A stretch of DNA of 64,000 nucleotides from an uncultured Thiotrichales bacterium (GTDB taxonomy: Bacteria > Pseudomonadota > Gammaproteobacteria > GCA-2400775). The stretch is from positions 100,085-164,084 of the forward strand of contig CAZTYM010000001.1 of NCBI GenBank assembly GCA_964617475.1. The letters run 5' to 3'. Positions within the stretch are counted from its first letter, which is position 1, and every line of letters begins with the position of its first letter. The position numbers were made by a program, and so were the translations under genes. The notes under the pieces were generated by a model that worked only from the letters and a program-made list of their open reading frames with translations, searched no databases and was not told where the DNA came from. Of this stretch, positions 2,021 through 64,000 are shown in pieces.

Positions 2021-3781
2021 TTATTTGTCTGAATCTATGACTGCGATTTGACAGCGGTTTCTGCCAAGCCGTTTAGCTTCGTATAAAGCGTCGTCGGCAC
2101 GAGAAAATACCTTATCAGGTGAGTCATTTTCACCGAACTCGGAGATACCGGCAGAAAGTGTTACAGGTATGGGTTTACCTTTGACTTCAAAATTACTGGA
2201 CTCAACTTGTTTTCGAATATTATCCGCGATAGTTTTTGCTGCCTTGCTGTCTGCGCCGGGTAACAACATGACAAATTCTTCGCCACCGTATCTTGCAACA
2301 AAATCAGTTTCGCGTAATTGTTTTTGCAAAATGCTCGCGATATATCGTAAAACATCATCACCTGTTAAGTGGCCATAGGTGTCGTTAATAATTTTAAAAT
2401 GATCCGCATCCCAAATAACCAGGCTAAGAGGTTTTCTATCGCGTTTCCATCTGGCGAATTCGACAAGAATACGTTCATCAAACGCCAGGCGATTAGGGGT
2501 TTTTGTCAGTGGATCAATGGTCGCTTGTATATGTTGTTCTTGAATTTGCTCACGCAATAAGCTTGCTTCTGATTCCATCGACTCAAGCTTGCTAGTCAGT
2601 TCACTCACTAATTTTTCAGACTCGGCATGCGCCTCTTTATGCTGTTGCTGGTGAGTACGCAAGTGTTCACGCAGACCATCTAACTGACTGAAGACGGATT
2701 TTCTTACTTGATCAATGTCATCGTGATTATTAATACTATGGTGAATACCTTCAACACTTTCATTAACGTTTTTATGAATAACATCGTTAGCCAGTTGTAC
2801 TTTTTCTCGAACCGATGATAGCCCAGAGATATTGAGCCCCATCACTTCAAGATGGTTAGTCAGTTCTGAGAGGAAGCTTTCAAGTTCATTTTTTTGTTCT
2901 TGAACTTGATTTTTAGCCTTCTCAATGAGATTGGATAGCAGTTTTAGTAGGCGCGGCCATTCATCAAGGGCTATCGGTTGTTCAAGTCGTTCGCGAATAT
3001 TAGCGACATCTACAGTTAGCGCTTCTGGAAAGTTTAGAAACTCAATGAGCAAGATAATCGCATCTGAAGCATCGTATGACTCCACTGAACCCGACTGAAT
3101 TTGTTGTTCTAAATCAGCCGCTGCTTTATTGAGTAGTTCGGAAAGTTGGATCGCCAGTTGTTTAAGTTTTTCTGGCTCTGCTTCCGCAGATTGCGCTTGT
3201 ATCGCCCGCAGCGTCGAGCTCGGAATTTCAGGAAAATCCAATCGACTGACGAAAACATTGATTAAATTTATATCATTTGCGGTGGATGTTTCGCCATGTG
3301 AATACGAAGTAGTAGTATCAGCAGCTTGATTACCGACCATATTGCCGATGTCAGTAACAATTTTCTCTAATTCTTTTTGATTAAGTTCTTGGCTAAGCTG
3401 TGATTTAAGCTGCTTAGCTTGTTGGCGAATGCTATCAATATTTTCTAGTTGGTCAGAGAGCTTTAAAAGCACCTTTGTCGGTGTTAACTGGTGCTCGGTT
3501 TCCTTGCTCAGCTGCATCAAAGTACCCGGCATACTCGCCGTCACTTCTTTCAACATGCGAATATCAACGTGTTTACCCATTGATTTACGCAAATTTGACA
3601 AACGTTCGTCTAAAACAGGGTGAACACCGTTGGCAGCGATTGTCAGTCGCCGAATGGTCATCCGTAACAGCTCTTCGGATTCAATCCATTCGCGCTCTTT
3701 TCGTCTCAGGTCATCTTGTGCCTGATTGAATTTAAGCTTCCAGTTCTCTTCACTGGTGCTCTTTTTTGACCGATTCAGCAT
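2021..3781 (-). CDS. Diguanylate cyclase (GGDEF domain) with long N-terminal coiled-coil region
   Basis: C-terminal RYGGEEF...GGEEFVMLLPG GGDEF signature. The roughly 400-aa N-terminus is highly helical and charged, with no TM segment. Confidence 0.85.
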   Translation of the reverse strand: MLNRSKKSTSEENWKLKFNQAQDDLRRKEREWIESEELLRMTIRRLTIAANGVHPVLDERLSNLRKSMGKHVDIRMLKEVTASMPGTLMQLSKETEHQLTPTKVLLKLSDQLENIDSIRQQAKQLKSQLSQELNQKELEKIVTDIGNMVGNQAADTTTSYSHGETSTANDINLINVFVSRLDFPEIPSSTLRAIQAQSAEAEPEKLKQLAIQLSELLNKAAADLEQQIQSGSVESYDASDAIILLIEFLNFPEALTVDVANIRERLEQPIALDEWPRLLKLLSNLIEKAKNQVQEQKNELESFLSELTNHLEVMGLNISGLSSVREKVQLANDVIHKNVNESVEGIHHSINNHDDIDQVRKSVFSQLDGLREHLRTHQQQHKEAHAESEKLVSELTSKLESMESEASLLREQIQEQHIQATIDPLTKTPNRLAFDERILVEFARWKRDRKPLSLVIWDADHFKIINDTYGHLTGDDVLRYIASILQKQLRETDFVARYGGEEFVMLLPGADSKAAKTIADNIRKQVESSNFEVKGKPIPVTLSAGISEFGENDSPDKVFSRADDALYEAKRLGRNRCQIAVIDSDK

Positions 3782-14847: not shown

Positions 14848-15534
14848 TTAAGTCTTCAAAACAGTAAAGATCTTATGTGTGGCGGCCATAATCGGCTTAT
14901 GGTTTTGACCATGCATGTTTGCCCTCGTTGCGAGTAAAACCTGTTAACTCATTGTCAGCATAGGTGAGAAAAAAGATAACCTAGCAAAAAAGGGCAAAGT
15001 GAGTTACTCAATAAATGGGGTGGAAGACAAATGCAACTGTTTATTGGTCTCGTTCGTCACTACCCCATTTTTCTTGCATAAAGTATAAGGAATAAGAATA
15101 AAAAGTCTTACCCATTTTATTGTATCTATCAAATATAAAGGCTGGACTCCTTGGTTTTTCTATCAGCCTGGTTATGTATCGATTACGATAGGTTGACCTA
15201 GCGTTATTGGTTCTACCATCTAACCACCTAGATATCGCCTTAATCTGTTGCTTATTTTTAGCAGATTTCATATTTGTTTCTATCTTTCAAATTCGTGAAC
15301 GCCTTCACATTTTTCGCTTCATGTTTTCCGCTGGCTTCGTCGCTAAATATCAGGAGAGGGATAGGTTTCGTTTTCTAGGCGCCAGGCTGTTTCCGAGCAG
15401 CTAAAGATACTTTTTTTGACCTATATAGTCGCTTTCAGTAGCTGATGGCCTCACTGAAGTTTGAACAATATTTATTTGTATCTGATTGAGTGCTTTTTAA
15501 GCACTCTGAAATCAATGTTAAGAGAGCTGTTGGA

Positions 15535-17166
15535 ATGAGTAATCAAGGGAAAGAAATACCGCACGGATCGCTAGACAACTTTAAGCGTAATTGGAAAGCC
15601 GACGCGATGTCTGGCTTCCTTGTCTTTTTAATCGCTCTACCTCTTTGTCTTGCCATTTCCGTTGCTTGTGGATATCCCGCTATTGCTGGTGTGTATACCG
15701 CAATCATCGGCGGTATTTTATCTGCGTTTCTAAGTAATTCTGAAATGACAATCAAAGGCCCAGCGGCCGGGTTGATAGTTGTTGCTTTAGCCTGTGTCAC
15801 CGAATTCGGTTTTACGGGTGGCGAAAATATTGAGGCTGACATTCAAGCCTACCGTTTAGCACTGGGCGTGGGTGTTGTTGCGGGTTTAGTGCAGGTGTTC
15901 CTTGCGATTATGCGGTCTGGTGCTTTGAGTGAATTCTTCCCGGCGCCAGTCGTTCACGGTTTATTGGCATCAATTGGTGTGTTGGTTATTGCCACGCAGC
16001 TTCCTATTATGTTGGGTGTTCAAGGTGATGGCGCGCCATTAGAACGATTGGCTTCGATACCCAGTTATCTGTTTGAGATGAATCCGGCAATAGCTTTAAT
16101 CGGCGGTATTAGTCTGCTGATTATGTTTGGTTTTACTTATATTAAAAACCCCAAATTTAGAATTATTCCTGCACCTATGTTGGTTTTAATAGTGGCAGTA
16201 CCATTAGGCATTTACTTTGATATCGGTAATGTACAAAGTATCTCTTACTTTGGGATAGAGCATACTTTCGGTCCGCAGTATTTAGTCAATGTACCAGATA
16301 ATATGTTTAGTGCTATGGTCTTTCCAGACTTTTCCGGCGTGTTTACGGCAGTCGGTATTAAATACATTATTATGTTTGCGTTAATCGGCAGTATAGAGTC
16401 GGTGTTGAGTGCTAAGGCGGTTGACCAGATAGACCCTTGGCGTCGTAAAACCAATTTTGATAAAGATCTTCTCGCAGTTGGCGCGGGTAATACGCTGGCT
16501 TCATTTATTGGTGGTTTGCCAATGATTTCAGAAATTGCACGTAGTAAAGCAAATATTGATAATGGTGCTCGTACTCGTTTCTCTAATCTGTTTCATGGTG
16601 TTTTTCTACTTGGCTTTATCGCTTTAGTACCTGCGTTGATTAATCAAATACCATTAGCAGCGCTTGCTGCAATGTTGGTATTTACTGGGTTTCGCCTTGC
16701 ATCACCAAAAGAATTTATTCATATGTATCAAGTTGGGCGTGAACAGTTTATTGTATTTCTTACGACGATCATCGCCGTGCTTGCGACTGATTTATTGATG
16801 GGTATTTTTATAGGCCTGCTTACTAAAGCGATACTGCATATTATCAATGGAGCACCAATTCGCTCTGTATTTATGCCAAGTATTGAAGTGACTGAAAGTA
16901 ATGACGAAACTGCCATAGTAAAAGTGAGTAAGGCAGTGATCTTCAGTAACTGGCTTCCCGTGAAACAAGCTATCAATCGTCAAAGAGCAAATAAAGTAAT
17001 GATAGATTTGTCTAATACTAATTTGGTGGGCCATTCAGTCATGGCTAATTTGCATCAAATAAAAGACGATTTTGAGCGCGTAGGGCGAGAGCTTGCAATC
17101 ACAGGTATTGAGGCTCATCAACCACTATCAAGGCATCAATTGGCTGCGCTGAAAGCAAAAGCGTAA
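15535..17166 (+). CDS. SulP-family anion transporter with C-terminal STAS domain
   Basis: Multi-TM SulP core (GYPAIAGVYTAIIGG..., PLAALAAMLVFTGF) with a C-terminal STAS-like region. Start moved to MSNQ, downstream of an 8-bp palindrome that overlaps the longer ORF start. Confidence 0.85.
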   Translation: MSNQGKEIPHGSLDNFKRNWKADAMSGFLVFLIALPLCLAISVACGYPAIAGVYTAIIGGILSAFLSNSEMTIKGPAAGLIVVALACVTEFGFTGGENIEADIQAYRLALGVGVVAGLVQVFLAIMRSGALSEFFPAPVVHGLLASIGVLVIATQLPIMLGVQGDGAPLERLASIPSYLFEMNPAIALIGGISLLIMFGFTYIKNPKFRIIPAPMLVLIVAVPLGIYFDIGNVQSISYFGIEHTFGPQYLVNVPDNMFSAMVFPDFSGVFTAVGIKYIIMFALIGSIESVLSAKAVDQIDPWRRKTNFDKDLLAVGAGNTLASFIGGLPMISEIARSKANIDNGARTRFSNLFHGVFLLGFIALVPALINQIPLAALAAMLVFTGFRLASPKEFIHMYQVGREQFIVFLTTIIAVLATDLLMGIFIGLLTKAILHIINGAPIRSVFMPSIEVTESNDETAIVKVSKAVIFSNWLPVKQAINRQRANKVMIDLSNTNLVGHSVMANLHQIKDDFERVGRELAITGIEAHQPLSRHQLAALKAKA

Positions 17167-52462: not shown

Positions 52463-53269
52463 ATGAAGCGATACTCACACTACCTAGGTGCAATTGGTAC
52501 CAGCTGTTTGGTGGTAGCCGTATTATGGGTTTTGCCAGAGGAAGTGAGCTTATTTCTCAATATTCCGGGATTGTTCCTAGTTATTGGCGGTACTATTATC
52601 GCGACCTGTGTTAGTCGACGTCGTCGGCACGTGGTAAGTGTATTACGCTCATTGCCCGCATTAGTTTTCAACAAGAAAAACCCTAGCAACTTAAACGCAA
52701 AGGTTGATCGTTTTTTGGGTACAGCAGAGAGTTATCGTCGTTCTCGCATACGCATGACAGAAGAGATGGCAGCGCGTATAGGTGATGGCTTTGCCCAAAG
52801 CGGTATTGCTTTAGTGGTGGATAGAGTTGAACCCGCTGAAATGAATAAAATTTTTCAGTGGCGTATAAATGCTATTGCCTCCGCCGAGCAAGCAAAAATT
52901 CAAGTAGTTAAAACCATGGCCAATTTTGCACCTGCCTTAGGTATGCTGGGAACGCTAGTCGCTATGGTACACATGCTTTATGGATTAGAAAGTGCTGATA
53001 TTAACGAAATTGGTCGTTCAATGGCGTTTGCTATGATTACCACACTATATGGAATTATTATTTCTAATCTTATTTGTAAACCTCTAGCCATTAAAATGGA
53101 GCAAGCACTACAACAAAAAATGCTCGTGCTTAATATGTGGGTAGAAGGCATTAATGGTATGGCTGCAAAACGTCATCCGCAATTAATTAGAGAGGCAATG
53201 GACACATTCCTCATGCAAAACGAACAGTATGAAGCTGAAGTGCCGGCATTGGTATTAGCAACAAACTAA
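52463..53269 (+). CDS. motA: MotA/PomA-family stator protein (proton/sodium channel subunit A)
   Basis: Four-TM topology with a large cytoplasmic loop. APALGMLGTLVAMVHML and AMITTLYGIIISNLICKPLA align with PomA/MotA TM3-TM4 motifs. Confidence 0.75.
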   Translation: MKRYSHYLGAIGTSCLVVAVLWVLPEEVSLFLNIPGLFLVIGGTIIATCVSRRRRHVVSVLRSLPALVFNKKNPSNLNAKVDRFLGTAESYRRSRIRMTEEMAARIGDGFAQSGIALVVDRVEPAEMNKIFQWRINAIASAEQAKIQVVKTMANFAPALGMLGTLVAMVHMLYGLESADINEIGRSMAFAMITTLYGIIISNLICKPLAIKMEQALQQKMLVLNMWVEGINGMAAKRHPQLIREAMDTFLMQNEQYEAEVPALVLATN

Positions 53270-53291
53270 CGGTCTTTTGGGAGTTTACTTA

Positions 53292-54416
53292 ATGTCGGTA
53301 ACTAACAATAAAAATATGTCATGGGTTTCTATGGAAAAGCCAGAGCCTATTGCAGCGCGTAATAGTTCCTCTGATTCAGATGGCTGGGTCGTAAGTTATG
53401 CTGATATCTTATTATTGTTACTGACTTTTTTCATTTTGCTGTTTGCATTTTCGCGCGTTGGAGGCACCGACATGCGTGAAACTGAATCAGGACAGTCGGA
53501 AACATTATCTGAAGCAAAGCAAGAGCGAACAACTCAAACTGCTAGATTAGAATACGAGCTTGAACAAGTTGCTCCAGAATCTTTATTGGAAGCACCGTCC
53601 ACCGATAAACCTATCCGCCAGCTAATGGTTGTTGCCAGTAGCACAGGCACTAATTTTGTTGAGCAAGTGAAAGAAACTTCTGACCGAACTAGTGATGAGG
53701 AAAATAGCGAAGATATTGTTACTGGTCTAAATGTGGATGCTGAGACATTAGATCTTGCTGAGCAAGAAGAGAATTTAGACTTGGTCTATGAAATTGAGCA
53801 GGACATAAATAATAGCATTGCCTCAGAAGCAGACTTTTCTGAATCAGAAAATACTACTGCGCACATAATGCCTTATTCTATTGAAGCTGAGTACATCGAA
53901 GCTGAGCATATCGCAACTCACTTTCCCGAAGAAAATCACATTGCGCAACAGCATACCGTTGGTTTAACGATTGACGAGCAACTAGCTAGACTCAGCGCAG
54001 GTTTAACCTCAGATGAAATTGAACTTACCAGCGGCTATCAGTCTATAAATATAGAACTCAATAACAAAGTATTATTTTCATTAGGCGAAGCGAATTTATT
54101 AGCAGAAGGGCAGCAGTTTTTGAACGAAATCGTCGACATCATGCAAGGTAATGAATATTATGCCTCGATAGAAGGGCATACTGATAATTCGCCTATTTCT
54201 ACAGCGCGATTTCCCTCTAATTGGGAGCTGTCTTCAGCGCGTGCAAACTCTGTTGCACGTTATCTTATTGAGCAAGGTATTAATGCTCAGCGCTTGCGCA
54301 CAATTGGTTATGCGGATACTAAGCCGAAAGTAGATAATAATTCCGAAGAAGGTCGGGCCGTTAATCGACGTGTATCGATCATGTTTCATTTTGATGAAGA
54401 TACGCCCGTCACTTAA
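53292..54416 (+). CDS. motB: MotB/PomB-family stator protein with OmpA-like peptidoglycan-binding domain and long acidic linker
   Basis: VVSYADILLLLLTFFILLFAF plug/TM region. C-terminal OmpA-like domain (IEGHTDNSPIS...NWELSSARANSVARYL...NRRVSI). About 150-aa acidic, low-complexity linker. GGGAG SD before the ATG at 53292. Confidence 0.75.
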   Translation: MSVTNNKNMSWVSMEKPEPIAARNSSSDSDGWVVSYADILLLLLTFFILLFAFSRVGGTDMRETESGQSETLSEAKQERTTQTARLEYELEQVAPESLLEAPSTDKPIRQLMVVASSTGTNFVEQVKETSDRTSDEENSEDIVTGLNVDAETLDLAEQEENLDLVYEIEQDINNSIASEADFSESENTTAHIMPYSIEAEYIEAEHIATHFPEENHIAQQHTVGLTIDEQLARLSAGLTSDEIELTSGYQSINIELNNKVLFSLGEANLLAEGQQFLNEIVDIMQGNEYYASIEGHTDNSPISTARFPSNWELSSARANSVARYLIEQGINAQRLRTIGYADTKPKVDNNSEEGRAVNRRVSIMFHFDEDTPVT

Positions 54417-54419
54417 TGC

Positions 54420-55031
54420 ATGAGTATCATGAATAATTTCCTAAGTAGATATCTATTTGTCACCAGTACGTTCGTGCTGCTGCTGATGTCTCAGTTCGCC
54501 ATGGCTGGTATTGACGAAGGGATTGCAGCGTACAATAACGGCGATCACGCAACTGCCTATGATGAGTTTTTGCCCGTCGCAAAAGCTGGCGACAAAAAAG
54601 CGCAACTCTTATTAGGCTTAATGTATGACAATGGGCTTGGTGTTAAGAAAGACCACGACAGTGCTGCACAGTGGTACCGTAGAGCGGCGGAACAAGGACA
54701 ACCACGTGCACAATTCAACCTTGGTCTAATGTACGAAAGTGGTGAAGGCATCCAAGCTGACGAAGAACTCGCGCTCTCCTGGATTCGTAAATCCGCGGAA
54801 CAAGGTTATGCCGAAGCGCAAGATATGTTGGGCCGCTTTTACGAACATGGTAAGTACCTAGATAAAGATCTGGTCAAATCTCACATTTGGTATAGCCTGG
54901 CGGCTGGAAAGGGCGCGCGCGAATCTATAGCACCGCGAGAAAGAGTTGCAGCGCAGCTTAGCGAAGCACAACTCGCTGAGTCAGAAAAAATGGTTAACGA
55001 ATGGCAAAACGTCTTTCAACACGTGTTTTAG
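54420..55031 (+). CDS. Secreted Sel1-repeat protein (MotX-like candidate)
   Basis: Signal peptide and about four Sel1-like repeats (AQLLLGLMYDNGLGVKKD, AQFNLGLMYESGEGIQAD, AQDMLGRFYEHGKYLDKD). Vibrio MotX is a Sel1-repeat protein of similar size. Confidence 0.5.
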   Translation: MSIMNNFLSRYLFVTSTFVLLLMSQFAMAGIDEGIAAYNNGDHATAYDEFLPVAKAGDKKAQLLLGLMYDNGLGVKKDHDSAAQWYRRAAEQGQPRAQFNLGLMYESGEGIQADEELALSWIRKSAEQGYAEAQDMLGRFYEHGKYLDKDLVKSHIWYSLAAGKGARESIAPRERVAAQLSEAQLAESEKMVNEWQNVFQHVF

Positions 55032-55107
55032 AACAGTAAACTACTGGTCGTTCCACCTCACCTAGCAATCAATTATAATCGTCACTTTATCCTAGCCAGG
55101 TATTTCA

Positions 55108-55428
55108 GTGATGGAAGATATAAATCCACAAGAACTCAAAGACTTGCTTGAGCAAGCAAACCCACCCAAAGTTATCGATGTCCGTCAAGACTGGGAATAC
55201 GAAAAATGCAGCATCGATGGTTCGCTGCATATTCCCATGGATCAAATAGAAGACCACGTAGACCAACTAGACGTAGAAGAAAACATTGTTGTCGTCTGCC
55301 ACCACGGCATGCGCAGCGCGCAAGTTGCCCAATACCTCATTCAAAGTGGTTTCTCTAATATCTCAAATCTTGCTGGTGGTATTGATGCCTGGGCCAGAGA
55401 AATCGACCCCGCGATGGAACAGTATTAA
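55108..55428 (+). CDS. Single-domain rhodanese (sulfurtransferase), GlpE-like
   Basis: Active-site loop VVVCHHGMRSAQ; 106 aa. Confidence 0.75.
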   Translation: MMEDINPQELKDLLEQANPPKVIDVRQDWEYEKCSIDGSLHIPMDQIEDHVDQLDVEENIVVVCHHGMRSAQVAQYLIQSGFSNISNLAGGIDAWAREIDPAMEQY

Positions 55429-55864: not shown

Positions 55865-56794
55865 ATGTCACCTAATGCTATATTAATTAATAGTACTGGA
55901 ATCGAGAAGCGGGATATTACTATGGATTCGAACTTGGAATCGGTCATACTGGAACCTGATAGTGCGTTCGACAACCGCTTAGGGCAGATTCTCCTCAAGG
56001 AAGGGAAAATCAAGGAAAAAGATGTTAAACGCATTATTACCTATGCGCAAAAGAAAAAGATTCGTTTTGGTGAGGCCGCAATTAAACTCAGGGCTGCGTC
56101 TCGCAATGATGTTGAGCGCGCTATTGCCGCGCATTTTGACTATCCTTATCTGCTTAAAAACGAGGGTAATTTAAGCAAGGAATTGGTATCTGCTTACCGT
56201 CCTTTCACTACGAAAGCGGAAGATATTCGAAACCTAAGAAGTCAGTTAATTTCCAAGTGGTTTAATGATGAGCATAACTGCCTAGCGATTGTTAGTCCAA
56301 ATTCGGGCTCTGGCCGCAGTTATCTTGCCGCTAATCTTGCTATCGCTTTTTCTCAACTTGGGCATAAAACTTTGCTTGTTGATGCCGATTTACAAGATGC
56401 ACGTCAGCATAAAATTTTTGGACTAGATAATTCCATAGGTTTGTCTACGTTGCTTGTTGGTAATGATGATCTGGATTTACCAATCAGAAGTATAGAATTG
56501 ATAAATCGATTATATGTGATGACGGCTGGCGCAGCGCCGCCAAACCCTTCAGAACTATTATCGCGGGAGAAATTTAAACAACTCAAGAGTGTTGTTTCAA
56601 GTCGGTTTGACGTGGTGATTTTTGATACCTCACCTGGTGAGTTAGGTAATGCCGCTGAAGCCGTAGCTGAGGCTTGCGGAGGAGCGCTGATGGTATTGGT
56701 GCCTAATCGTACTCATCACACTGATGCTTCAACCTTTGTGGATAGAGTGAATGATAGAGCCACTGTAGTGGGTGCTGTGTTCAATAAACCGTAG
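55865..56794 (+). CDS. MshEN/T2SSE-N-like domain fused to BY-kinase (CapB/Wzc-type) P-loop ATPase domain with Walker A lysine replaced by Arg
   Basis: N-terminal RLGQILLKEGKIKEKDVKRIITYAQ and RFGEAAIKLRAASRNDVERAIAAHF resemble the tandem 24-aa MshEN/GspE-N motifs. The C-terminus aligns with BY-kinase catalytic domains (SPNSGSGRSYLAANLA vs SxxPGEGKT...NLA; LLVDADLQ...HKIFGL; PPNPSELL; VVIFDTSP). There is no C-terminal tyrosine cluster. Confidence 0.6.
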   Translation: MSPNAILINSTGIEKRDITMDSNLESVILEPDSAFDNRLGQILLKEGKIKEKDVKRIITYAQKKKIRFGEAAIKLRAASRNDVERAIAAHFDYPYLLKNEGNLSKELVSAYRPFTTKAEDIRNLRSQLISKWFNDEHNCLAIVSPNSGSGRSYLAANLAIAFSQLGHKTLLVDADLQDARQHKIFGLDNSIGLSTLLVGNDDLDLPIRSIELINRLYVMTAGAAPPNPSELLSREKFKQLKSVVSSRFDVVIFDTSPGELGNAAEAVAEACGGALMVLVPNRTHHTDASTFVDRVNDRATVVGAVFNKP

Positions 56795-56840
56795 TAATTA
56801 TTTGTTCTGATCTGTCTAAGAAATATTTTTGGAGAATGTT

Positions 56841-56969
56841 GTGAATCTTGATAAAAATAGTCGTGTTTACATTGCTGGATGTGGTGGTATGTTGGGAGAT
56901 GCAGTTTATGGCTATTTCTCAGAAAGAACGACGGTAAAAGCGACGGATATTGATCTTAATGTTGATTGA
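56841..56969 (+). pseudogene. Truncated N-terminal remnant of an NAD-dependent epimerase/dehydratase-family gene
   Basis: VNLDKNSRVYIAGCGGMLGDAVYGYF (Rossmann GxxGxxG) terminates after 43 codons. About 580 bp of non-coding sequence follows. Confidence 0.35.
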
Positions 56970-57546
56970 TTTGAATACTCCGATGTTAGGAGACTATGCT
57001 GGCATGGAGCAATCAATTACTGAGTTTATACTTGATTTGATCATTATGTGAATTTGGCTCTCCAGGTGGACGAGTGAATTATTGGCAGGGATGACAATCA
57101 AGAGATAGCAGCACTATCGATCTTCTCTTTATTCAAACTACTAAAAAAGATTCCTTTATAGCATTATCGTAACAGTTTCCGAGTCGACTCTTGCTCAGCA
57201 GCAGTCGGTGCTCCTGGCAAAATTGCTGCACTCACCTTTCCTTAATTATTGGCTGCTATAGGCACTAAGGAGTGTTGTCTTGCCATTAGTATGGAAAAGG
57301 TTTAGCAACTGCATAAGATGCAGCTTATATGGGAAAAAATAATTCTGATAAAATAAGAGAAGTCTGACAACGCTTGATTAAAGATAATCAATTAGTATCC
57401 ATCATAGCAGATAAGGATTATTACCGTGTTCATGCAAAGTCTCGCTGAGACGTTATTGTGCATCAATACCTTAATACCTTGAAGTGATGGAAAGCATTCT
57501 CGCATAATCCATAGAAAAGAACTCAAGCAAGTTCAATTCCTAAAAC

Positions 57547-59091
57547 TTAATTCATTCTTATTAAAAATTTTAACTTACTCGGCAAAATTTGCTGAATCAG
57601 CACTTTTTCGTCGTGTTTAAGTGGCAGTTTGACTAAAATAATAGCTAGAAATAATGTGCAGGCGGCTATTGCTGCAATAATTTCAATTAAACCTAGTGCT
57701 TTAAGCGCAAAACCGGCGGCTATGGATAATATAGTAATTGCTAATATAAGGAAGCTTAGCCTCCAATCAAACGTAAAAATATAGTCATATCGTCGCATAT
57801 ACACAGTAATAATAATTACTGATAAAACAAGGCCTGCAATATTTGCGATGGCAATAGACCATAGACCTAAGTGCGGAATAAGCGGAATCGCCAAGAATAT
57901 GGATGCTGATAGGGTTAGATTGCTAATAGTAAATATGCGAGTGTGTTCAACTGCTTTTACTAAAAGGTCTAGCACCACGTTAATGCTGGAAATTACTATT
58001 ACGGTATAGAAACCTAAAAATAGTAGAGAAGCATTTGTATATTTACCCGATGATATCCAATTAAATAGCGTCTCGCCGGCTACGGAAAAAAGGATAAAAA
58101 GCGGTACCAGTACGAGCAAATTTAAACGGAACAGGAAATTTCCCATAGAGACGATATGACTAAAATCATTATCTATGCTGTAGCGTGACATAAACTTCGG
58201 TCTTATCAAACCAACAAAAAGGCGAATTGGTGCAAACTTTCTTATATATTCTATTAATCTGTCTATCACACCGAATAAGGCAATGAGCTCTGTTGGCATA
58301 AAGTAAGAAACAAAGAGTCGATTCGCAGGACTACCGTAGGAAATGGAAGTAAGGTTTTGCATGTAACTCCACGCGCCGAATCTAAGATAACGATTTCGAT
58401 TTGTCATTAAGACACTGCTATCACCTAGGTGCTTTTCATGATCGTTTCTTCTGCGCACTATCAGCCAGCAAAGCAAAATAACTAGAGTTGCCGCTTCCGA
58501 AATGCCCTCAATAATGACAAAATTAGCTAGTGATAGTTGATCAATCGACATCGCAAATACCACTAGAACCAGTTTAATAAGACCACCAATAGCGGCACTA
58601 TATTGTGCTTCTTTCTGCCATAATAGGTTTTCCAATGCCATCACAACAAAAGTGGCGTTTGCACGAAAAAATCCGACTGCGAAATACCACGGTACTATCC
58701 ACAGCCAGTCTTGAAGTTTAAATGCGTTTGCTATTACTTCAATAAATGGAAGCAGTACTGCTATAAGCACAAGGTAAAGAACAGCCCTAAGCGCGATGCT
58801 ATACATCAGCAATTGGTACATTGGCTTGTTATTACTGTGGGTGCGCAGTTCTGGCACGAATCGATGTAATACAGAATTAACACCAAAAGAAGACACAAGC
58901 CCCATAATTCGAGTAAGGGCGTGCAGCGATGTATAGACCGCAAATTCGGCAATAGACAATGCACGAATAATTAGCAGTAAAACGACGAAGGTAGACCCAG
59001 CAGCAAATCCTTTCCCCAACACAAAATGAATAAAGCTCTTTCTAAATGCTTTGATACCATAGTGTTTTGATCCAGATAGAGGCATGCTCAC
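57547..59091 (-). CDS. Polysaccharide biosynthesis/flippase protein (Wzx-like, MOP superfamily)
   Basis: 514 aa with roughly 12-14 TM helices and the N-terminal pattern typical of PST/Wzx proteins. Confidence 0.65.
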   Translation of the reverse strand: MSMPLSGSKHYGIKAFRKSFIHFVLGKGFAAGSTFVVLLLIIRALSIAEFAVYTSLHALTRIMGLVSSFGVNSVLHRFVPELRTHSNNKPMYQLLMYSIALRAVLYLVLIAVLLPFIEVIANAFKLQDWLWIVPWYFAVGFFRANATFVVMALENLLWQKEAQYSAAIGGLIKLVLVVFAMSIDQLSLANFVIIEGISEAATLVILLCWLIVRRRNDHEKHLGDSSVLMTNRNRYLRFGAWSYMQNLTSISYGSPANRLFVSYFMPTELIALFGVIDRLIEYIRKFAPIRLFVGLIRPKFMSRYSIDNDFSHIVSMGNFLFRLNLLVLVPLFILFSVAGETLFNWISSGKYTNASLLFLGFYTVIVISSINVVLDLLVKAVEHTRIFTISNLTLSASIFLAIPLIPHLGLWSIAIANIAGLVLSVIIITVYMRRYDYIFTFDWRLSFLILAITILSIAAGFALKALGLIEIIAAIAACTLFLAIILVKLPLKHDEKVLIQQILPSKLKFLIRMN

Positions 59092-59142: not shown

Positions 59143-59979
59143 TTAAAGCCAATGCTTCAATGGTCGGTCAATTAGCTTCTCTAAACGCTTAATTTCGTTT
59201 TCAAAGCTTTCTTTCAATTGCTGCTTGGTAGCTTCTTTCATGGGTGGAATGACGGTATTGGAACTAGTGCGGTTTAAGTTACGGTATATTTTTTGAAAAC
59301 CTAGTTTACCTGTAGTATTCCATAACGATCCTAAACCGATTTTACGAATGATCGAACGGACACCATTCTTTATTGCTTCTGCTCCTGCAGACCGGTTTAC
59401 GTAGCTTTCGTTGGAGCGCTGAGTCAGCGCTGCGGACTGGTGATTGGGGTCAATTTCTAAGAACTGATAAACGCGTTTAGAAACGGCCACTGGGTCCTTA
59501 ATAACATCATCAAAAAGTAGAACGAGTAACTGCTCTTTTGGAAAATGCACTAGCCAGTTTTCTAAGTGCGTTGCGTAAAGCCCTTGTTCTATATAAGAGG
59601 GGTTGTTCTTCATTCCATATTCAAAACTCAAATCTTCGCCCTGAATGTGACCAGTGCGGACTTCATGTTGATGATTTGAGATGGCTCTTTGTTCAGGGTT
59701 TCTCAGTAGGACGATAAGCTTGACTTCTGGGTTGTATTGTTTGATTCGGGTGGGTACGGATACGCCGTGAAAATAAGAGGGTGATATTTCGCCGATTATT
59801 TTTTTGTTGGTGTCTATGAAATTACGTTCATACCACTCAAAGCCAAAGTCATAATAGTTGGAAAAAAAATCCAGTTCCTTTTTTTCGCTGACATATGCTT
59901 CAGGGTGGTCTGCAAGAATGTCATAAACCCAGGTTGAGGCACATTTTTGTGCTCCGATGCCAATGAACGTTGGCTTCAT
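59143..59979 (-). CDS. Sulfotransferase-family protein
   Basis: 5'-PSB-like IGIGAQKCASTW and 3'-PB-like LIVLLRNPEQRAISNHQH motifs. Confidence 0.7.
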   Translation of the reverse strand: MKPTFIGIGAQKCASTWVYDILADHPEAYVSEKKELDFFSNYYDFGFEWYERNFIDTNKKIIGEISPSYFHGVSVPTRIKQYNPEVKLIVLLRNPEQRAISNHQHEVRTGHIQGEDLSFEYGMKNNPSYIEQGLYATHLENWLVHFPKEQLLVLLFDDVIKDPVAVSKRVYQFLEIDPNHQSAALTQRSNESYVNRSAGAEAIKNGVRSIIRKIGLGSLWNTTGKLGFQKIYRNLNRTSSNTVIPPMKEATKQQLKESFENEIKRLEKLIDRPLKHWL

Positions 59980-60573
59980 TGTTTCAATTCTCCTTAGTGA
60001 GCGAGTAAGGAACGCCTAACAGAAAAAACTATTCCTCATAAATTCACGCTTTATATTGGCTATTATATCGCTGGATTGAATGATGACGCATGAATTCTGT
60101 ATTGCATCTCTTGTCTATATCGGATGCTAATGCGCCAATTGTAGTGCGCTTAACCGAAAGTACAACGATTTATGAAAAGTCTAGTCACGCTTAGCGCAAT
60201 GTCTGTATATCGAGCCTATCTCACTCGGTGTCTGTTATCTACCCTAACAGTAAAAAAATTGTTGTCCTATGTTTAGCTGTTAAATGAAGGTGTCGGAAAA
60301 CTTTACAGTATTGGTTTTGATAAGATTCAGGCCTTTCTACAACGCTCTTGGCTAAGGCTATGAGAGTAAACGAGTTATGTCGACTAGGCACTAAATTAGT
60401 TTGTCGAGAAACTTTACATTCACATGGTTACACGCAAGTTGTTATATCGATAAATAATGGTAAGTAATTGTAATGTAAAGAAAAAAAATAATTGGCCTAT
60501 TATATGCAGATCAACAATAGATTTAGTTAAATGTTGCTAATGCAACGGGAAATTCTTTGATTAAGGGATAGCG

Positions 60574-63500
60574 ATGAGTGATTACAAATACAGTTTTAGC
60601 TGTGAGATAGATAATTTCGGATTCTGGAGGGAGCTTTCATCACTCAGTCGCTGTGCTACGGCCGCGCTTGTCACGGGCATATATCTATTTCTCTGTGCAA
60701 CCACAGTACACGCAGAAATTAAGTTCGAGGACGTGACTGTCGGGTCAGGTACGGAGTATGAAGGTGAATCTTACGGTGCTTCATGGGGTGACTCGAACAG
60801 CGATGGTTGGCCTGATCTTTTCGTTAACCATCATCGAAATACTCCAAGTGCTTACTTAAACCAGGCGGATGGATCATTTGAAGACCGAGGGTTCGAAGTA
60901 GATATCTGGAGAGAGAGACCAAATCGTGACATGCATGGAGGTAGCTGGGCCGACTTTGATAACGACGGTGACCAGGATTTATTTATCACAATTGGATCTT
61001 CGGCAAATAGTCAGTTTCTTGTTAATACCGATACCATACTTTCAGACGAGGTTAATGACAGTACATTTACATTCGACGTAGTTAACTGGGCTGGCAGAAT
61101 GCCTACCTGGTTAGATTTCGATCTGGATGGTTTATTAGACTTTGCTGTATCTCTTCGTAGTTCTAGGCCGCAGATGCATCGACAAATTCCAGGTGCTCGC
61201 GATTTTCAACGTGTGAATAGTGCGGCAAATGCGGCATGTGTTATTAATGACGGATCGAACTACAGCTTGCTTTCCGATGTAAATAACGACTCAAGACTTG
61301 ATTTTGTCTGTTTGAGTGCAGCGTTCGCCCCTGACGAAATTTATAACGTAGGTCAGTTACCTTTTACTACAGTCGCTAACCAATTTCCGGTCATTTCGAA
61401 CGTGACAGACACTGCAATCGGTGACTTCAATGGAGACTTGGTCAATGACTTCGTTATGTCGCGGGGAAGGTTACGTCAACGAGGTGCAGCAATTGTCAGT
61501 CCCTCTAGAATTGAAGCTCATCTGATTCCGACTGAACCCGACATCCCTCAAGGTATCGATTTTAAAACAACGGGAGACGTTACTTTCCAGGTTACTTGGG
61601 CTAGTCGTAATATTAACCGCGTCTTTATTGGTTCACAGGGTATCAATACAGGTGTGCAGAATATTGATACTGTTTTAACTTTTACTCTATCGGCATCTAA
61701 CCCTGATCACCAAGGGATTGTTGATATTGATCCAACCTTACCTTCAGCTATATACATTGGTTACGATGTCGCTTCCGAAACATGGCAATACCGGGTTGAT
61801 AGAGGCAATACATTTGCTTACACCTATACGTTCATTGATAGCACCGTTCCAGATATGTCTGACATACAGGTATTCGGTCTAAACAATAGTGATGCCCCTA
61901 ACCGGTCCGCACTCGTACTTAGTGATCCTAATACTGGAGATTTTATTGAAAGCGCGCAAGCCTCAGGCTTGGGTCAGCCGCAATCGTGTGCTTCAGTTGT
62001 TGCTGCAGACTTTGATAATGATATGGATGTGGATATCTACATGGCTTGTCGTACGGGCATCGAAAACATACCAAACATCGTGTACGAAAACCAAGGCGAT
62101 GGCACATTCGTATTATTACCGCCAACTACTGGTGGTGAAGGCCCTCTTGGTTTCAATGTGGGGTTAGCAGAAAGTGTAACGGTAGCCGACTACGATGTTG
62201 ACGGTCGCGTTGATTTGTTTGTTACAAATGGCCTTAAGCTTTATCCTGAATTTGAACCGCTAGCTAATGGTGGGCCTGACGTACTACTGCGGAACACAAG
62301 CGATAATAACAATAACTGGATACAGCTCGACTTGGTGGGGACACGGTCTAACCGCGATAGTATTGGTGCCAAAGTTTTTGCAACTGCGGGCGGCGTCACT
62401 CAGTTGCGTGAACAAAATGGTGGTTTCCATCGTTGGTCACAAGACCATCAGCGTATTCACTTTGGTTTAGCGCAAAATACGTCTGTTGACATACAGGTTA
62501 TTTGGCCGAATGGCGATATTGATAATTTTACGATAGATGGCATTACAGACACAGTTAACAACTTGTACCGTATTACAGAAAGCGATGGTGTTTCAGGCCC
62601 ATCGACAATCGAGCAAGTTACTTTAACAACCTCTGTACCTCTTTCCCCTTGTGTTGAGCCTGAAATTGATCGGCTTGTTGAACAAGGGTTGTTCGTATGG
62701 CGTGATTGTAATGCCGATACCTGGCATGTTCGTGTAACAGGCGGCGGTGTTTCAACAAATTATGAAGGTAGCGTTTTAGCCGATGACCCATTGGCAAGTT
62801 TGACTGCTTTCAATATTGAAACTAATGACAGTGTGGATTCACCTGATTCACGCCAAATTATATTTGACCTGGTTTCAGGTGCGACAGGTATTGATGGTTT
62901 CGACTTTAGTTTACAACCTGGCACCAGTGCATGTCTTTCACTTGATGCTCCTGCTGGGGCTGATGTTTTTCTCGGATTTTTAAAGAATCCAATAACATTA
63001 CCAATTGACTTATTAACACTGGGTCCATGTAACAATCAAATGCAGTTGCCGTCGGTATCTGTGGAAGACGCAGTCGTCAATGAGGCTGACGGAATTGTAA
63101 GTGTGCCATTGAATTTGTCCTTTGCCGCGACAGATGTAGTCACTGTAGAGCTTAGTACGACTGATGGTAGCGCGACATCTCCTGACGATTACGCTGGTAT
63201 CGACGCTGCATTACCACAAATTGTTACTTTCCAACCTGGTGACCTCAGTGCAAGCGTTGATATTACAATCAATGATGATCTAGAAGCAGAAGGGACTGAA
63301 GATTTTAACGTTACCATTAGTAATCTAGTCGGTAGCGCGCTTATTTCAAGAAATAGCGCTGTAATTACGCTTGAGGATGACGAAATCAACCCAATAGGTC
63401 GTCCGGTAGTTGATAGAGATGTTGATCAGGCATTGTTCCTTTGGCAGGACGAGACGACGGGTGCGTGGAATGTTGAAGCCACTGCTGGCGGATCTACTCA

Positions 63501-64000
63501 AACACTCAATTTTGTTGGTGAAATATTATCTGATCAAGGTTTTACTCAAGTCACACCAGTAAGTATTGAAGGCAATGATGTCTTAGATAATGTTACTGAT
63601 CCGAATGCAATCCTGTTCGACTTGGCAGTACGACAGGGGGCCGGGCCAGTAGATGAATTTAACTTTAGTTTCCCTATCGGCGCATCTGTTTGTTTCACTG
63701 TAACTGGTGCACCTTCAGGTCAAACTGTATTACTTGGTGCGTCAAGACAGCCGCTAACAGCGCCTTTCGATCTTGCGACTTTACAGCCATGTACGGGTGT
63801 ACCAACACGAATTTCCGTAGCGGATGTCAGTGTTTCCGAGACAGAAGCTTCGGTTGATATACCTGTAACTTTGTTGTTCCCAAGTACAGAAGTAGTGACT
63901 GTAGAACTGTCGACTACAGATGGTACTGCGGTATCACCTGACGATTACACAGGGTTAACTTCGCCTGCAACGGTGATTTTCCCTGTTGGTCAAACGTCTG
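60574..64000 (+). CDS. Large secreted FG-GAP/VCBS + ASPIC/UnbV (CRTAC1-like) protein with tandem Calx-beta domains; 3' end beyond window
   Basis: Open in frame 1 from the ATG at 60574 to the window end. Signal-like N-terminus; FG-GAP-like DxDGDxD repeats (ADFDNDGDQD, DFDNDMDVD, DYDVDGRVD); UnbV/ASPIC signature (NNNNWIQLDLVGTRSNRDSIGAKVFATAGGVTQLREQNGGFHRWSQDHQRIHFGL...VDIQVIWPNGD); at least two Calx-beta units (VELSTTDGSATSPDDYAG...INDDLEAEGTEDF). Confidence 0.7.
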   Translation, partial: MSDYKYSFSCEIDNFGFWRELSSLSRCATAALVTGIYLFLCATTVHAEIKFEDVTVGSGTEYEGESYGASWGDSNSDGWPDLFVNHHRNTPSAYLNQADGSFEDRGFEVDIWRERPNRDMHGGSWADFDNDGDQDLFITIGSSANSQFLVNTDTILSDEVNDSTFTFDVVNWAGRMPTWLDFDLDGLLDFAVSLRSSRPQMHRQIPGARDFQRVNSAANAACVINDGSNYSLLSDVNNDSRLDFVCLSAAFAPDEIYNVGQLPFTTVANQFPVISNVTDTAIGDFNGDLVNDFVMSRGRLRQRGAAIVSPSRIEAHLIPTEPDIPQGIDFKTTGDVTFQVTWASRNINRVFIGSQGINTGVQNIDTVLTFTLSASNPDHQGIVDIDPTLPSAIYIGYDVASETWQYRVDRGNTFAYTYTFIDSTVPDMSDIQVFGLNNSDAPNRSALVLSDPNTGDFIESAQASGLGQPQSCASVVAADFDNDMDVDIYMACRTGIENIPNIVYENQGDGTFVLLPPTTGGEGPLGFNVGLAESVTVADYDVDGRVDLFVTNGLKLYPEFEPLANGGPDVLLRNTSDNNNNWIQLDLVGTRSNRDSIGAKVFATAGGVTQLREQNGGFHRWSQDHQRIHFGLAQNTSVDIQVIWPNGDIDNFTIDGITDTVNNLYRITESDGVSGPSTIEQVTLTTSVPLSPCVEPEIDRLVEQGLFVWRDCNADTWHVRVTGGGVSTNYEGSVLADDPLASLTAFNIETNDSVDSPDSRQIIFDLVSGATGIDGFDFSLQPGTSACLSLDAPAGADVFLGFLKNPITLPIDLLTLGPCNNQMQLPSVSVEDAVVNEADGIVSVPLNLSFAATDVVTVELSTTDGSATSPDDYAGIDAALPQIVTFQPGDLSASVDITINDDLEAEGTEDFNVTISNLVGSALISRNSAVITLEDDEINPIGRPVVDRDVDQALFLWQDETTGAWNVEATAGGSTQTLNFVGEILSDQGFTQVTPVSIEGNDVLDNVTDPNAILFDLAVRQGAGPVDEFNFSFPIGASVCFTVTGAPSGQTVLLGASRQPLTAPFDLATLQPCTGVPTRISVADVSVSETEASVDIPVTLLFPSTEVVTVELSTTDGTAVSPDDYTGLTSPATVIFPVGQTS

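Follow-up and report, generated by a model that had tools for sequence, protein, structure and literature searches.

The EpsG-like gene and its kinase-like domain

The window analyzed here is a stretch of 64,000 nucleotides (nt) from an uncultured Thiotrichales bacterium (contig CAZTYM010000001.1, positions 100,085 to 164,084), and this work concerns an EpsG-like gene within it, at 55865 to 56794 on the forward strand, that encodes a protein of 309 amino acids (aa). The boundaries of the open reading frame (ORF) are exact, and an initial annotation made from the sequence alone was correct in every descriptive statement about it: the ORF, two tandem motifs of ∼24 aa, the Walker A motif, and the loss of tyrosines. 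A Shine-Dalgarno sequence (AAGGA/GGAGG) lies 8 to 13 nt 5′ of the ATG, and a 436-bp AT-rich spacer precedes the gene. Given this upstream spacer of its own, and given that the next intact gene on the 3′ side is convergent, the gene looks monocistronic from its sequence context. The gene recurs, identical base for base, in 6 further metagenome contigs, with zero nucleotide differences among the contigs compared.

From N to C terminus, the protein comprises a disordered segment (∼aa 1 to 30), a four-helix MshEN_N domain, and a P-loop domain resembling that of bacterial tyrosine (BY) kinases, as delineated with the NCBIfam model TIGR03029, AlphaFold, and Foldseek (CapB, Wzc, and Etk). The full-length AlphaFold model (pLDDT, 89.1; pTM, 0.82) shows disorder at aa 7 to 29 and helices at 33 to 45, 51 to 64, 68 to 74, and 80 to 90, after which the alpha/beta P-loop domain begins.

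Family assignment follows from TIGR03029, which is named EpsG and matches residues 36 to 307 over profile positions 2 to 273 of 274 (E value, 1.9e-82; 276.5 bits). As this model spans the MshEN-like part too, the 309-aa protein is a full-length EpsG homologue, albeit one below the equivalog threshold; relatives score 294 to 420 bits. The model TIGR01007 (“tyrosine autokinase”) is also matched, at 122 bits and above its 108-bit cutoff. A Pfam scan of the single sequence returned only generic P-loop models (ParA, CbiA, and AAA_31), with no match to T2SSE_N. Homologues number 4,437, many of which bear the name EpsG from their sources, and identity to the named EpsG proteins is only 42 to 46%. All family counts given below use two sets: the 120 nearest homologues, and 151 sequences that represent clusters formed at 50% identity (542 such clusters at an E value of ≤1e-30). 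EpsF and EpsG were reportedly the subject of a functional study by Ayabe-Chujo et al. in 2012.

The present protein has the architecture of the EpsG family, namely, an N-terminal MshEN_N-like region and a BY-like P-loop domain over the full length of ∼290 aa, with no tyrosine tail. This combination, which the initial annotation did not know as a characterized system, is the one described by TIGR03029, and Wang et al. (2016; PMC5013675, supplement) had listed EpsG of Methylobacillus (Mfla_2024) as MshEN_N joined to a non-T2SSE ATPase, predicted it to bind cyclic di-GMP (c-di-GMP), and printed its motif alignment. The architecture is therefore already catalogued rather than new, and the gene is a divergent further member of the family. 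Further shared traits are a Walker A motif without lysine, a conserved linker (QFDYPYL, which reads HFDYPYL here), and the same type of polysaccharide locus, with an outer membrane polysaccharide export (OPX) gene and an EpsF-like polysaccharide copolymerase (PCP). The differences are that the present gene scores below the equivalog cutoff, does not sit beside its PCP, and has no exosortase (EpsH/EpsI) seen near it; that its cluster is one for a sulfated polymer, with giant FG-GAP/Calx-beta proteins; and that the protein carries H90, Q177, N200, and V279 at otherwise nearly invariant positions.

The assignment of the remainder of the protein to the BY-kinase type, proposed in the initial annotation, held up in both sequence and structure comparisons. 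A profile of 50 family members, compared with PDB sequences, matched CapA/CapB chimeras over the C-terminal two thirds (E value, 7e-48), along with Etk, Wzc, BceF, and VpsO. With Foldseek, the P-loop domain matched CapB as well as the kinase domains of Wzc and Etk, at a root mean square deviation (rmsd) of 1.6 to 1.8 Å over ∼204 columns; for Wzc (PDB entry 3LA6), the rmsd was 1.7 Å, with a target-normalized TM score of 0.75. This protein has the fold, the EX2RX2R motif, the Walker A′ aspartates, and Walker B in common with Staphylococcus aureus CapB, Escherichia coli Wzc and Etk, Vibrio cholerae VpsO, and Burkholderia BceF, and separation from the PCP is a trait it has in common with the CapA/CapB type.

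Motif by motif (definitions for EX2RX2R, Walker A′, and Walker B from PMC9800525), EX2RX2R, the oligomerization motif of BY-kinase rings, was read from the sequence as E119, R122, and R125 (56219 to 56239, forward strand). Among the 120 nearest homologues, these residues are kept in 105, 120, and 119 sequences, respectively. Both the BY-kinase fold and the ring motif are in place in the present protein. Walker A′ (TLLVDADLQ; 56369 to 56395, forward) retains D173 and D175 and has Q177 where the motif has arginine; D173 is found in all 120 nearest homologues, and position 177 is arginine in 92 of them and in 137 of the 151 representatives, 4 of which have glutamine. In Walker B (VVIFDTSP; 56612 to 56635, forward), D254 and T255 are shared by 119 and 115 of the 120. 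Measured against hhhhDxDxR for Walker A′ and hhhhDTPP for Walker B, D173, D175, D254, and T255 are present and the arginine is replaced by Q177.

Canonical BY-kinases differ from the present protein in having a Walker A lysine (here arginine), a Walker A′ arginine (here glutamine), and a C-terminal tyrosine cluster (here absent), and in lacking the additional N-terminal MshEN_N domain. The degenerate Walker A (S144-PNSGSG-R151-S152; 56294 to 56320, forward) departs from GxxxxGK[ST], with R151 in place of the catalytic lysine of CapB (GAGKS) in the alignment. The nearest homologues have arginine (69), cysteine (29), valine (8), serine (7), or glycine (5) at this position and never lysine; the diverse representatives have arginine (86), lysine (14), alanine (13), serine (12), cysteine (11), threonine (7), valine (4), or glycine (2). 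Lysine is thus missing in 120/120 close homologues and in 137/151 representatives. The last tyrosine is Y217, and the C terminus (...VGAVFNKP) ends 2 residues past N307, the last conserved residue; about 90% of the 151 representatives likewise end no more than 3 residues past the last conserved asparagine, and the longer tails are never tyrosine rich.

The GSGRS reading of Walker A and the missing tyrosine cluster were both reported correctly in the initial annotation, and “pseudokinase” is a fair description of a protein in which both the catalytic lysine and the target tyrosines are missing. What did not hold was the treatment of the lysine-to-arginine change as a peculiarity of this gene, since it is a trait of the EpsG family (lysine in 0/120 and 14/151). 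A sequencing or assembly error, with lysine expected in the homologues, is ruled out: the gene is base-identical in the 6 further contigs, the substitution is family-wide, and none of the 120 nearest homologues has lysine. Structures of Wzc K540M with MgADP are on record (PDB entry titles); since this variant carries MgADP, loss of the Walker A lysine is no bar to nucleotide binding. Judged by its conserved motifs, the whole EpsG family looks like BY pseudokinases with a retained nucleotide pocket, and the automatic names “tyrosine autokinase” and “tyrosine kinase EpsG” are probably wrong for all of it.

The MshEN_N domain and its putative c-di-GMP site

The two 24-residue motifs occupy aa 38 to 61 and aa 67 to 90, with the 5-residue spacer of MshEN between them, and together make up a 53-residue region of the MshEN_N c-di-GMP type (aa 38 to 90; 55976 to 56134, forward; motif definition from PMC5013675). 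The peptides quoted in the initial annotation are residues 38 to 62 and 67 to 91. In a phmmer comparison, residues 34 to 96 aligned without gaps to residues 5 to 67 of V. cholerae MshE, and the 53-residue NCBIfam model NF053729 (“cyclic di-GMP-binding domain, MshE-related”) matched residues 38 to 89 (E value, 5.4e-7; 29.3 bits). When the profile of 50 family members was compared with PDB sequences, its N-terminal part matched the GSPII domains of PilF (E value, 6e-16) and MshE (PDB entry 5HTL; E value, 1.4e-6). For an AlphaFold model of residues 30 to 112, the best Foldseek match among 350,542 PDB chains was again 5HTL, in which MshE is bound to c-di-GMP, at an rmsd of 0.9 Å over 55 columns; the E value of this match is weak (0.09), a consequence of the small size of the domain. 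Next came structures of PilF GSPII-B with bound c-di-GMP.

The MshEN pattern that the initial annotation had seen in the N terminus is therefore borne out by the ungapped MshE register, NF053729, the family profile, and 5HTL as top structural match. Of the hidden Markov model comparisons suggested there for T2SSE_N/MshEN, NF053729 and the family profile were positive and Pfam T2SSE_N was blank on the single sequence. Detection of the domain thus came only from NF053729, the family profile, and structure prediction. Its classification as MshEN_N-like is supported by the register of its motifs as well as by the profile and fold comparisons.

Two 24-residue motifs with a 5-residue spacer, an identical register, and a four-helix fold are shared with MshE, Thermus thermophilus PilF GSPII-B, and E. 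coli NfrB, the last of which exemplifies an MshEN-type domain able to gate a polysaccharide synthase. The present protein differs from these MshEN/GSPII domains in possessing the MshEN_N subdomain only, without MshEN_C/T2SSE_N1, and in joining it to a BY-like domain rather than to a T2SSE ATPase or a glycosyltransferase. Its copy also has both terminal glutamines replaced and deviates at K48 and R76, and binding is here a prediction only.

In the ungapped MshE register, with residue roles after Wang et al., MshE R9/L10/G11 correspond to R38/L39/G40 (kept), G18 corresponds to G47 (kept), and I19 corresponds to K48 (not kept; K or R is usual in the EpsG family). The hydrophobic positions L25 and L29 are kept as V54 and I58, and Q32, the last residue of motif I, is replaced by A61. 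In motif II, R38/L39/G40 of MshE are kept as R67/F68/G69, the helix-turn glycine G47 is replaced by R76, L54 and L58 are kept as the hydrophobic V83 and I87, and Q61 is replaced by H90. Position 61 is glutamine in 128 of the 151 representatives; a large subclade, to which the nearest relatives of the query belong, has alanine there. At position 90, glutamine is found in 146/151 representatives and in 119/120 nearest homologues, which makes H90 a lineage-specific change. For comparison, the reference EpsG, Mfla_2024, itself departs from the relaxed motif at 4 positions, and almost no family member meets the relaxed motif in full.

Two features of the EpsG family are absent from the published MshEN consensus. 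Position 11 of motif I, hydrophobic in MshEN, is a conserved lysine or arginine (K48 here; K or R in 110 of the 151), and a nearly invariant QFDYPYL directly follows motif II (query residues 90 to 96). Both could be ligand contacts or an interface with the P-loop domain.

Probable partner genes and rearrangement of the locus

In two relatives (53% and 47% identical), EpsG belongs to a cluster with a common gene order: porin, OPX, EpsF-like PCP, EpsG, sulfotransferase, a protein of ∼440 to 510 aa, flippase, a protein with an ASD1 domain, and, last, a giant protein of the FG-GAP/Calx-beta type. OPX, PCP, and EpsG are contiguous in the related loci L007, L008, and L009. A named EpsG, that of Methyloradius, has the OPX-PCP-EpsG arrangement with exosortase genes EpsH/EpsI after it. 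With these two exosortase proteins, tblastn found no match in the window or in the region ∼25 to 45 kb downstream of the EpsG-like gene (L011), and neither gene is near EpsG in L007 or L009, which are the closest relatives.

Four members of this cluster, namely, EpsG, the sulfotransferase, the flippase, and the FG-GAP protein, have homologues in the window, with the sulfotransferase and flippase inverted relative to the relatives. The flippase homologue (57547 to 59091, reverse strand) is of the Wzx/Polysacc_synt type; it has no direct Pfam or NCBIfam match and is 50% identical to the PF01943 flippase in the EpsG cluster of L007. The sulfotransferase (59143 to 59979, reverse; PF00685 E value, 9e-19) is 59% identical to the one found directly 3′ of EpsG in L007 and L009. 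At 60565 to 64000 (forward) begins a giant surface protein with FG-GAP, UnbV_ASPIC, and Calx-beta domains by Pfam, which runs past the window and is 42% identical to the FG-GAP protein at the cluster end in L007. This secreted protein, with repeated Calx-beta domains, is open for more than 2,076 codons and continues in the adjoining sequence (L002, 5398 to 11625). Both L007 and L009 have a giant homologue at the end of their EpsG clusters, so this protein may be a conserved part of the sulfated-exopolysaccharide (EPS) locus.

That no Wzc-type or CapA-like partner is adjacent, as stated in the initial annotation, is true of adjacency: tblastn found no copolymerase or CapA-like gene anywhere in the 64-kb window, and none of the OPX, PCP, porin, priming transferase, or exosortase proteins of three relatives had a tblastn match there. 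The statement did not extend far enough, as an OPX gene and, directly after it, an EpsF-like PCP (P0196; 380 aa, with a GNVR domain and 50% identity to the PCP of a relative) lie ∼35 kb downstream. P0196 is on the same scaffold (ERZ23498758 scaffold_88) and the same strand as the EpsG-like gene, their starts being 35,030 bp apart, and no EpsG-like sequence follows P0196 on scaffold_88. Up to 10 kb upstream of P0196 are a second sulfotransferase, a 508-aa homologue of the ∼440- to 510-aa protein, and an ASD1 protein. The cluster is thus scattered and partly inverted relative to those of its relatives. The OPX-PCP pair is the likely partner of the EpsG-like protein, and rearrangement within one large locus likely separated the gene from the pair.

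An independent link between PCPs and EpsG-type proteins is provided by natural single-chain fusions (P0261, P0266, P0318, P0328, and P0367; 747 to 809 aa), in which a Wzz/GNVR copolymerase is followed by an MshEN_N-like region and then by a BY-like domain. Their layout resembles that of Wzc, except that a putative c-di-GMP module stands between the membrane part and the pseudokinase.

Several other features of the region were recorded. The L011 region, home to the remainder of the polysaccharide cluster, encodes the second sulfotransferase (343 aa), the 508-aa protein, the ASD1-domain protein, a 1,330-aa SdrD_B-repeat protein, the OPX protein, P0196, a 1,314-aa protein with a pectate-lyase fold, and a short priming-transferase-like gene of the Bac_transf type (164 aa). 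The stretch that separates the EpsG-like gene from the convergent flippase gene (56795 to 57546, forward) is rich in stop codons and is identical in the 6 further metagenome contigs. It opens with a 42-codon ORF (56841 to 56969; VNLDKNSRVYIAGCGGMLGDAVYGYFSERTTVKATDIDLNVD, then a stop) that contains a GxGxxG-like motif; the stretch had no match in Pfam or by tblastx against related loci. Our guess, prompted by that motif, is that it may be the decayed N terminus of a Rossmann-fold sugar epimerase or reductase (SDR/epimerase). Immediately upstream, after pnp, a set of forward-strand genes (52463 to 55428) encodes a MotA/PomA-like protein, a MotB/OmpA-like protein whose linker is long and acidic, a Sel1-repeat protein weakly similar to MotX, and a single-domain rhodanese; the set looks stator-like, and flagellar genes are not nearby. 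Judged from the PomA/MotX-like neighbors and from the named relatives of the PCP, the host is probably a marine gammaproteobacterium.

The initial annotation also pointed to a GGDEF cyclase in the window. This gene (2021 to 3781, reverse) is real, with a Pfam GGDEF match (E value, 2e-46) and a long diguanylate cyclase-associated coiled coil (PF20975). A sulfate permease of the SulP family is encoded at 15490 to 17166 (forward). Both would fit the theme of c-di-GMP and sulfated EPS, yet they lie 40 to 52 kb off among housekeeping genes. A link between the GGDEF gene and the EpsG-like gene was discarded for want of evidence, the two being 52 kb apart on opposite strands with dozens of unrelated housekeeping genes between them.

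A candidate phosphorylation-independent partner of the copolymerase

We hold with moderate confidence that the gene encodes a divergent EpsG-family protein that serves as the soluble cytoplasmic partner of the EpsF-like PCP in a Wzx/Wzy-type sulfated-EPS pathway, as a phosphorylation-independent scaffold with an MshEN_N input. Observed in the protein are the BY-kinase fold, EX2RX2R, the Walker A′ aspartates, and Walker B, together with the loss of the Walker A lysine and the tyrosine cluster, as in nearly the whole family. Such a protein would be unable to run the cycle of autophosphorylation and dephosphorylation by which canonical BY-kinase rings are put together and taken apart. Rather, a pseudokinase scaffold, probably still nucleotide binding, would dock beneath the PCP and set its oligomeric state, through which polymerization and export would be controlled. 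The four-helix MshEN_N domain would act as the regulatory input in place of phosphorylation; in the EpsG family, this input would most likely be c-di-GMP, and in the present copy, it may be weakened or lost. The initial annotation envisaged regulation of the adjacent polysaccharide genes; if functional, the protein would instead act post-translationally on the export machinery.

A precedent for action without phosphorylation is found in BY pseudokinases that work by binding a kinase-less PCP, namely, the pairs EcpK/EpsV and HfsB/HfsA (PMC12004946). EcpK of Myxococcus xanthus and HfsB of Caulobacter have a BY-kinase fold without catalytic or phospho-acceptor residues, and each is a stand-alone partner of a PCP-2 without a kinase domain, for which action by direct binding has been proposed (PMC12004946). 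In gene content, the present case is of this type: the residues are missing, the fold is present, and P0196, with its GNVR domain only, is a kinase-less PCP, with which we infer a physical pairing. EcpK differs in that all three of its Walker motifs are absent, whereas Walker A′ and Walker B are retained in the EpsG family; moreover, MshEN_N is missing from both EcpK and HfsB, and EcpK has not been proposed to respond to a second messenger.

Several points weigh against our interpretation. As to family and partner, the TIGR03029 score of 276.5 bits is below the curated cutoff of 313.8 bits, the Walker A′ arginine is Q177 in this protein, and the gene is not beside its presumed PCP, so that the OPX-EpsF-EpsG adjacency of the relatives is lacking. 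Directly downstream of the gene is the 750-bp stretch, no frame of which is free of stop codons; it may be a decayed gene. PCP interaction, ring formation, and nucleotide binding by the present protein are all properties that we infer. As to the ligand, both ligand-contacting glutamines are substituted (A61 and H90), R76 replaces the helix-turn glycine at position 10 of motif II, and the NF053729 score of 29.3 bits lies below the 38-bit cutoff and is the lowest among 9 family members scored, canonical EpsG proteins reaching 39.4 to 41.0 bits. The glutamine pair of the MshE/PilF type hydrogen-bonds the ribose-phosphate, and in PilF GSPII-B, a single glutamine-to-glutamate change lowers affinity 77- to 158-fold and the double change abolishes binding (PMC11731258); Gln32 of MshE is likewise implicated in c-di-GMP binding (Wang et al., PMC5013675). 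The searchable literature yielded no report of a c-di-GMP binding experiment with a member of the EpsG family, for which binding is a prediction from motif conservation.

The ligand-related points lend themselves to a variant that we regard as a serious but less probable possibility, in which the protein has the same role as a PCP scaffold and its N-terminal domain is blind to c-di-GMP, being purely a module for protein-protein contact in a constitutive pseudokinase partner, like the nonbinding N-terminal domains of XpsE and PilB. Besides the loss of both motif-terminal glutamines, the glycine-to-arginine change in motif II, the lowest NF053729 score of the nine, and the effect of the double change in PilF (PMC11731258), this variant draws on the lineage-specific nature of the H90 substitution (glutamine in 119/120 and 146/151) and on XpsE, which lost binding through comparable substitutions (Wang et al., PMC5013675). 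Yet R38/L39/G40, R67/F68/G69, and the four hydrophobic stacking positions (V54, I58, V83, and I87) are intact, and c-di-GMP binding by MshEN is mainly hydrophobic (Wang et al., PMC5013675). Alanine and histidine are nonrepulsive, unlike glutamate, and histidine could still donate a hydrogen bond; the predicted fold superimposes on ligand-bound MshE at 0.9 Å, and Mfla_2024 is a predicted binder despite its own 4 departures from the relaxed motif. Binding of c-di-GMP by the present protein is thus possible, and with both ligand-contacting glutamines substituted, its affinity is probably reduced.

We think it improbable that rearrangement of the polysaccharide cluster left the gene behind as a decaying remnant that no longer serves polysaccharide synthesis. 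Its distance of ∼35 kb from the OPX-PCP pair, directly after which EpsG sits in the relatives, the stop-rich stretch immediately 3′ of it, and the inversion of the neighboring flippase and sulfotransferase would all suit such a fate, as would its divergence from close relatives: among 69 positions that are ≥90% conserved in the 120 nearest homologues, 6 differ (Q90H, A109S, L121I, R131K, R200N, and R279V), against a median of 1, and only 6 of the 120 are as divergent. Among the 151 representatives, however, the protein is no outlier: it differs at 3 of 38 positions, and 40 sequences diverge as much or more. The full-length ORF is intact, with a good Shine-Dalgarno sequence; the AlphaFold model is of high confidence (pLDDT, 89); residues of the fold core and the ring interface are all kept; and the same scaffold carries the remaining components of the cluster in intact form, with no second EpsG-like gene after the PCP.

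An active kinase or ATPase, with Arg151 doing the work of the Walker A lysine and another protein (e.g., the PCP or a sugar dehydrogenase) as the substrate in place of its own tail, is very unlikely: retention of the Walker A′ aspartates and Walker B, the above-cutoff match to TIGR01007, and the use of “tyrosine kinase” for EpsG proteins in the literature speak for it, but relatives have cysteine, alanine, serine, valine, threonine, or glycine at that position, all unfit for the job of lysine, Walker A lysine mutants of Wzc and VpsO have no kinase activity (PMC9800525), the Walker A′ arginine is Q177, and the whole family is devoid of tyrosine tails.

For the family as a whole, the interpretation of EpsG as a phosphorylation-independent partner of the PCP touches on how c-di-GMP reaches polysaccharide export. 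The second messenger directly gates synthase-dependent polysaccharides, namely, cellulose, alginate, Pel, PNAG, and the NfrB glycan. That c-di-GMP has a direct receptor inside copolymerase machinery of the Wzx/Wzy type is a prediction dating from 2016, with no test found in the searchable literature, and our family analysis supports this prediction. Where MshEN_N is combined with a BY-like domain, the Walker A lysine is almost always missing and a tyrosine tail is never present, a pattern that fits a replacement of phosphorylation by ligand binding. We tentatively suggest that, in EpsG-type systems, a second-messenger-binding domain replaced tyrosine phosphorylation as the switch for assembly and disassembly of the ring under the PCP and that the present organism went a step further, with the pseudokinase uncoupled from its PCP and the glutamines changed. 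Since the present gene is a divergent and displaced copy, the idea of a c-di-GMP-gated BY pseudokinase is better tested in a canonical EpsG. If it is true, the changed ligand-contacting glutamines would mean an altered ligand affinity or specificity in the present organism, and the Wzx/Wzy-dependent pathway would be under direct, post-translational control by c-di-GMP.

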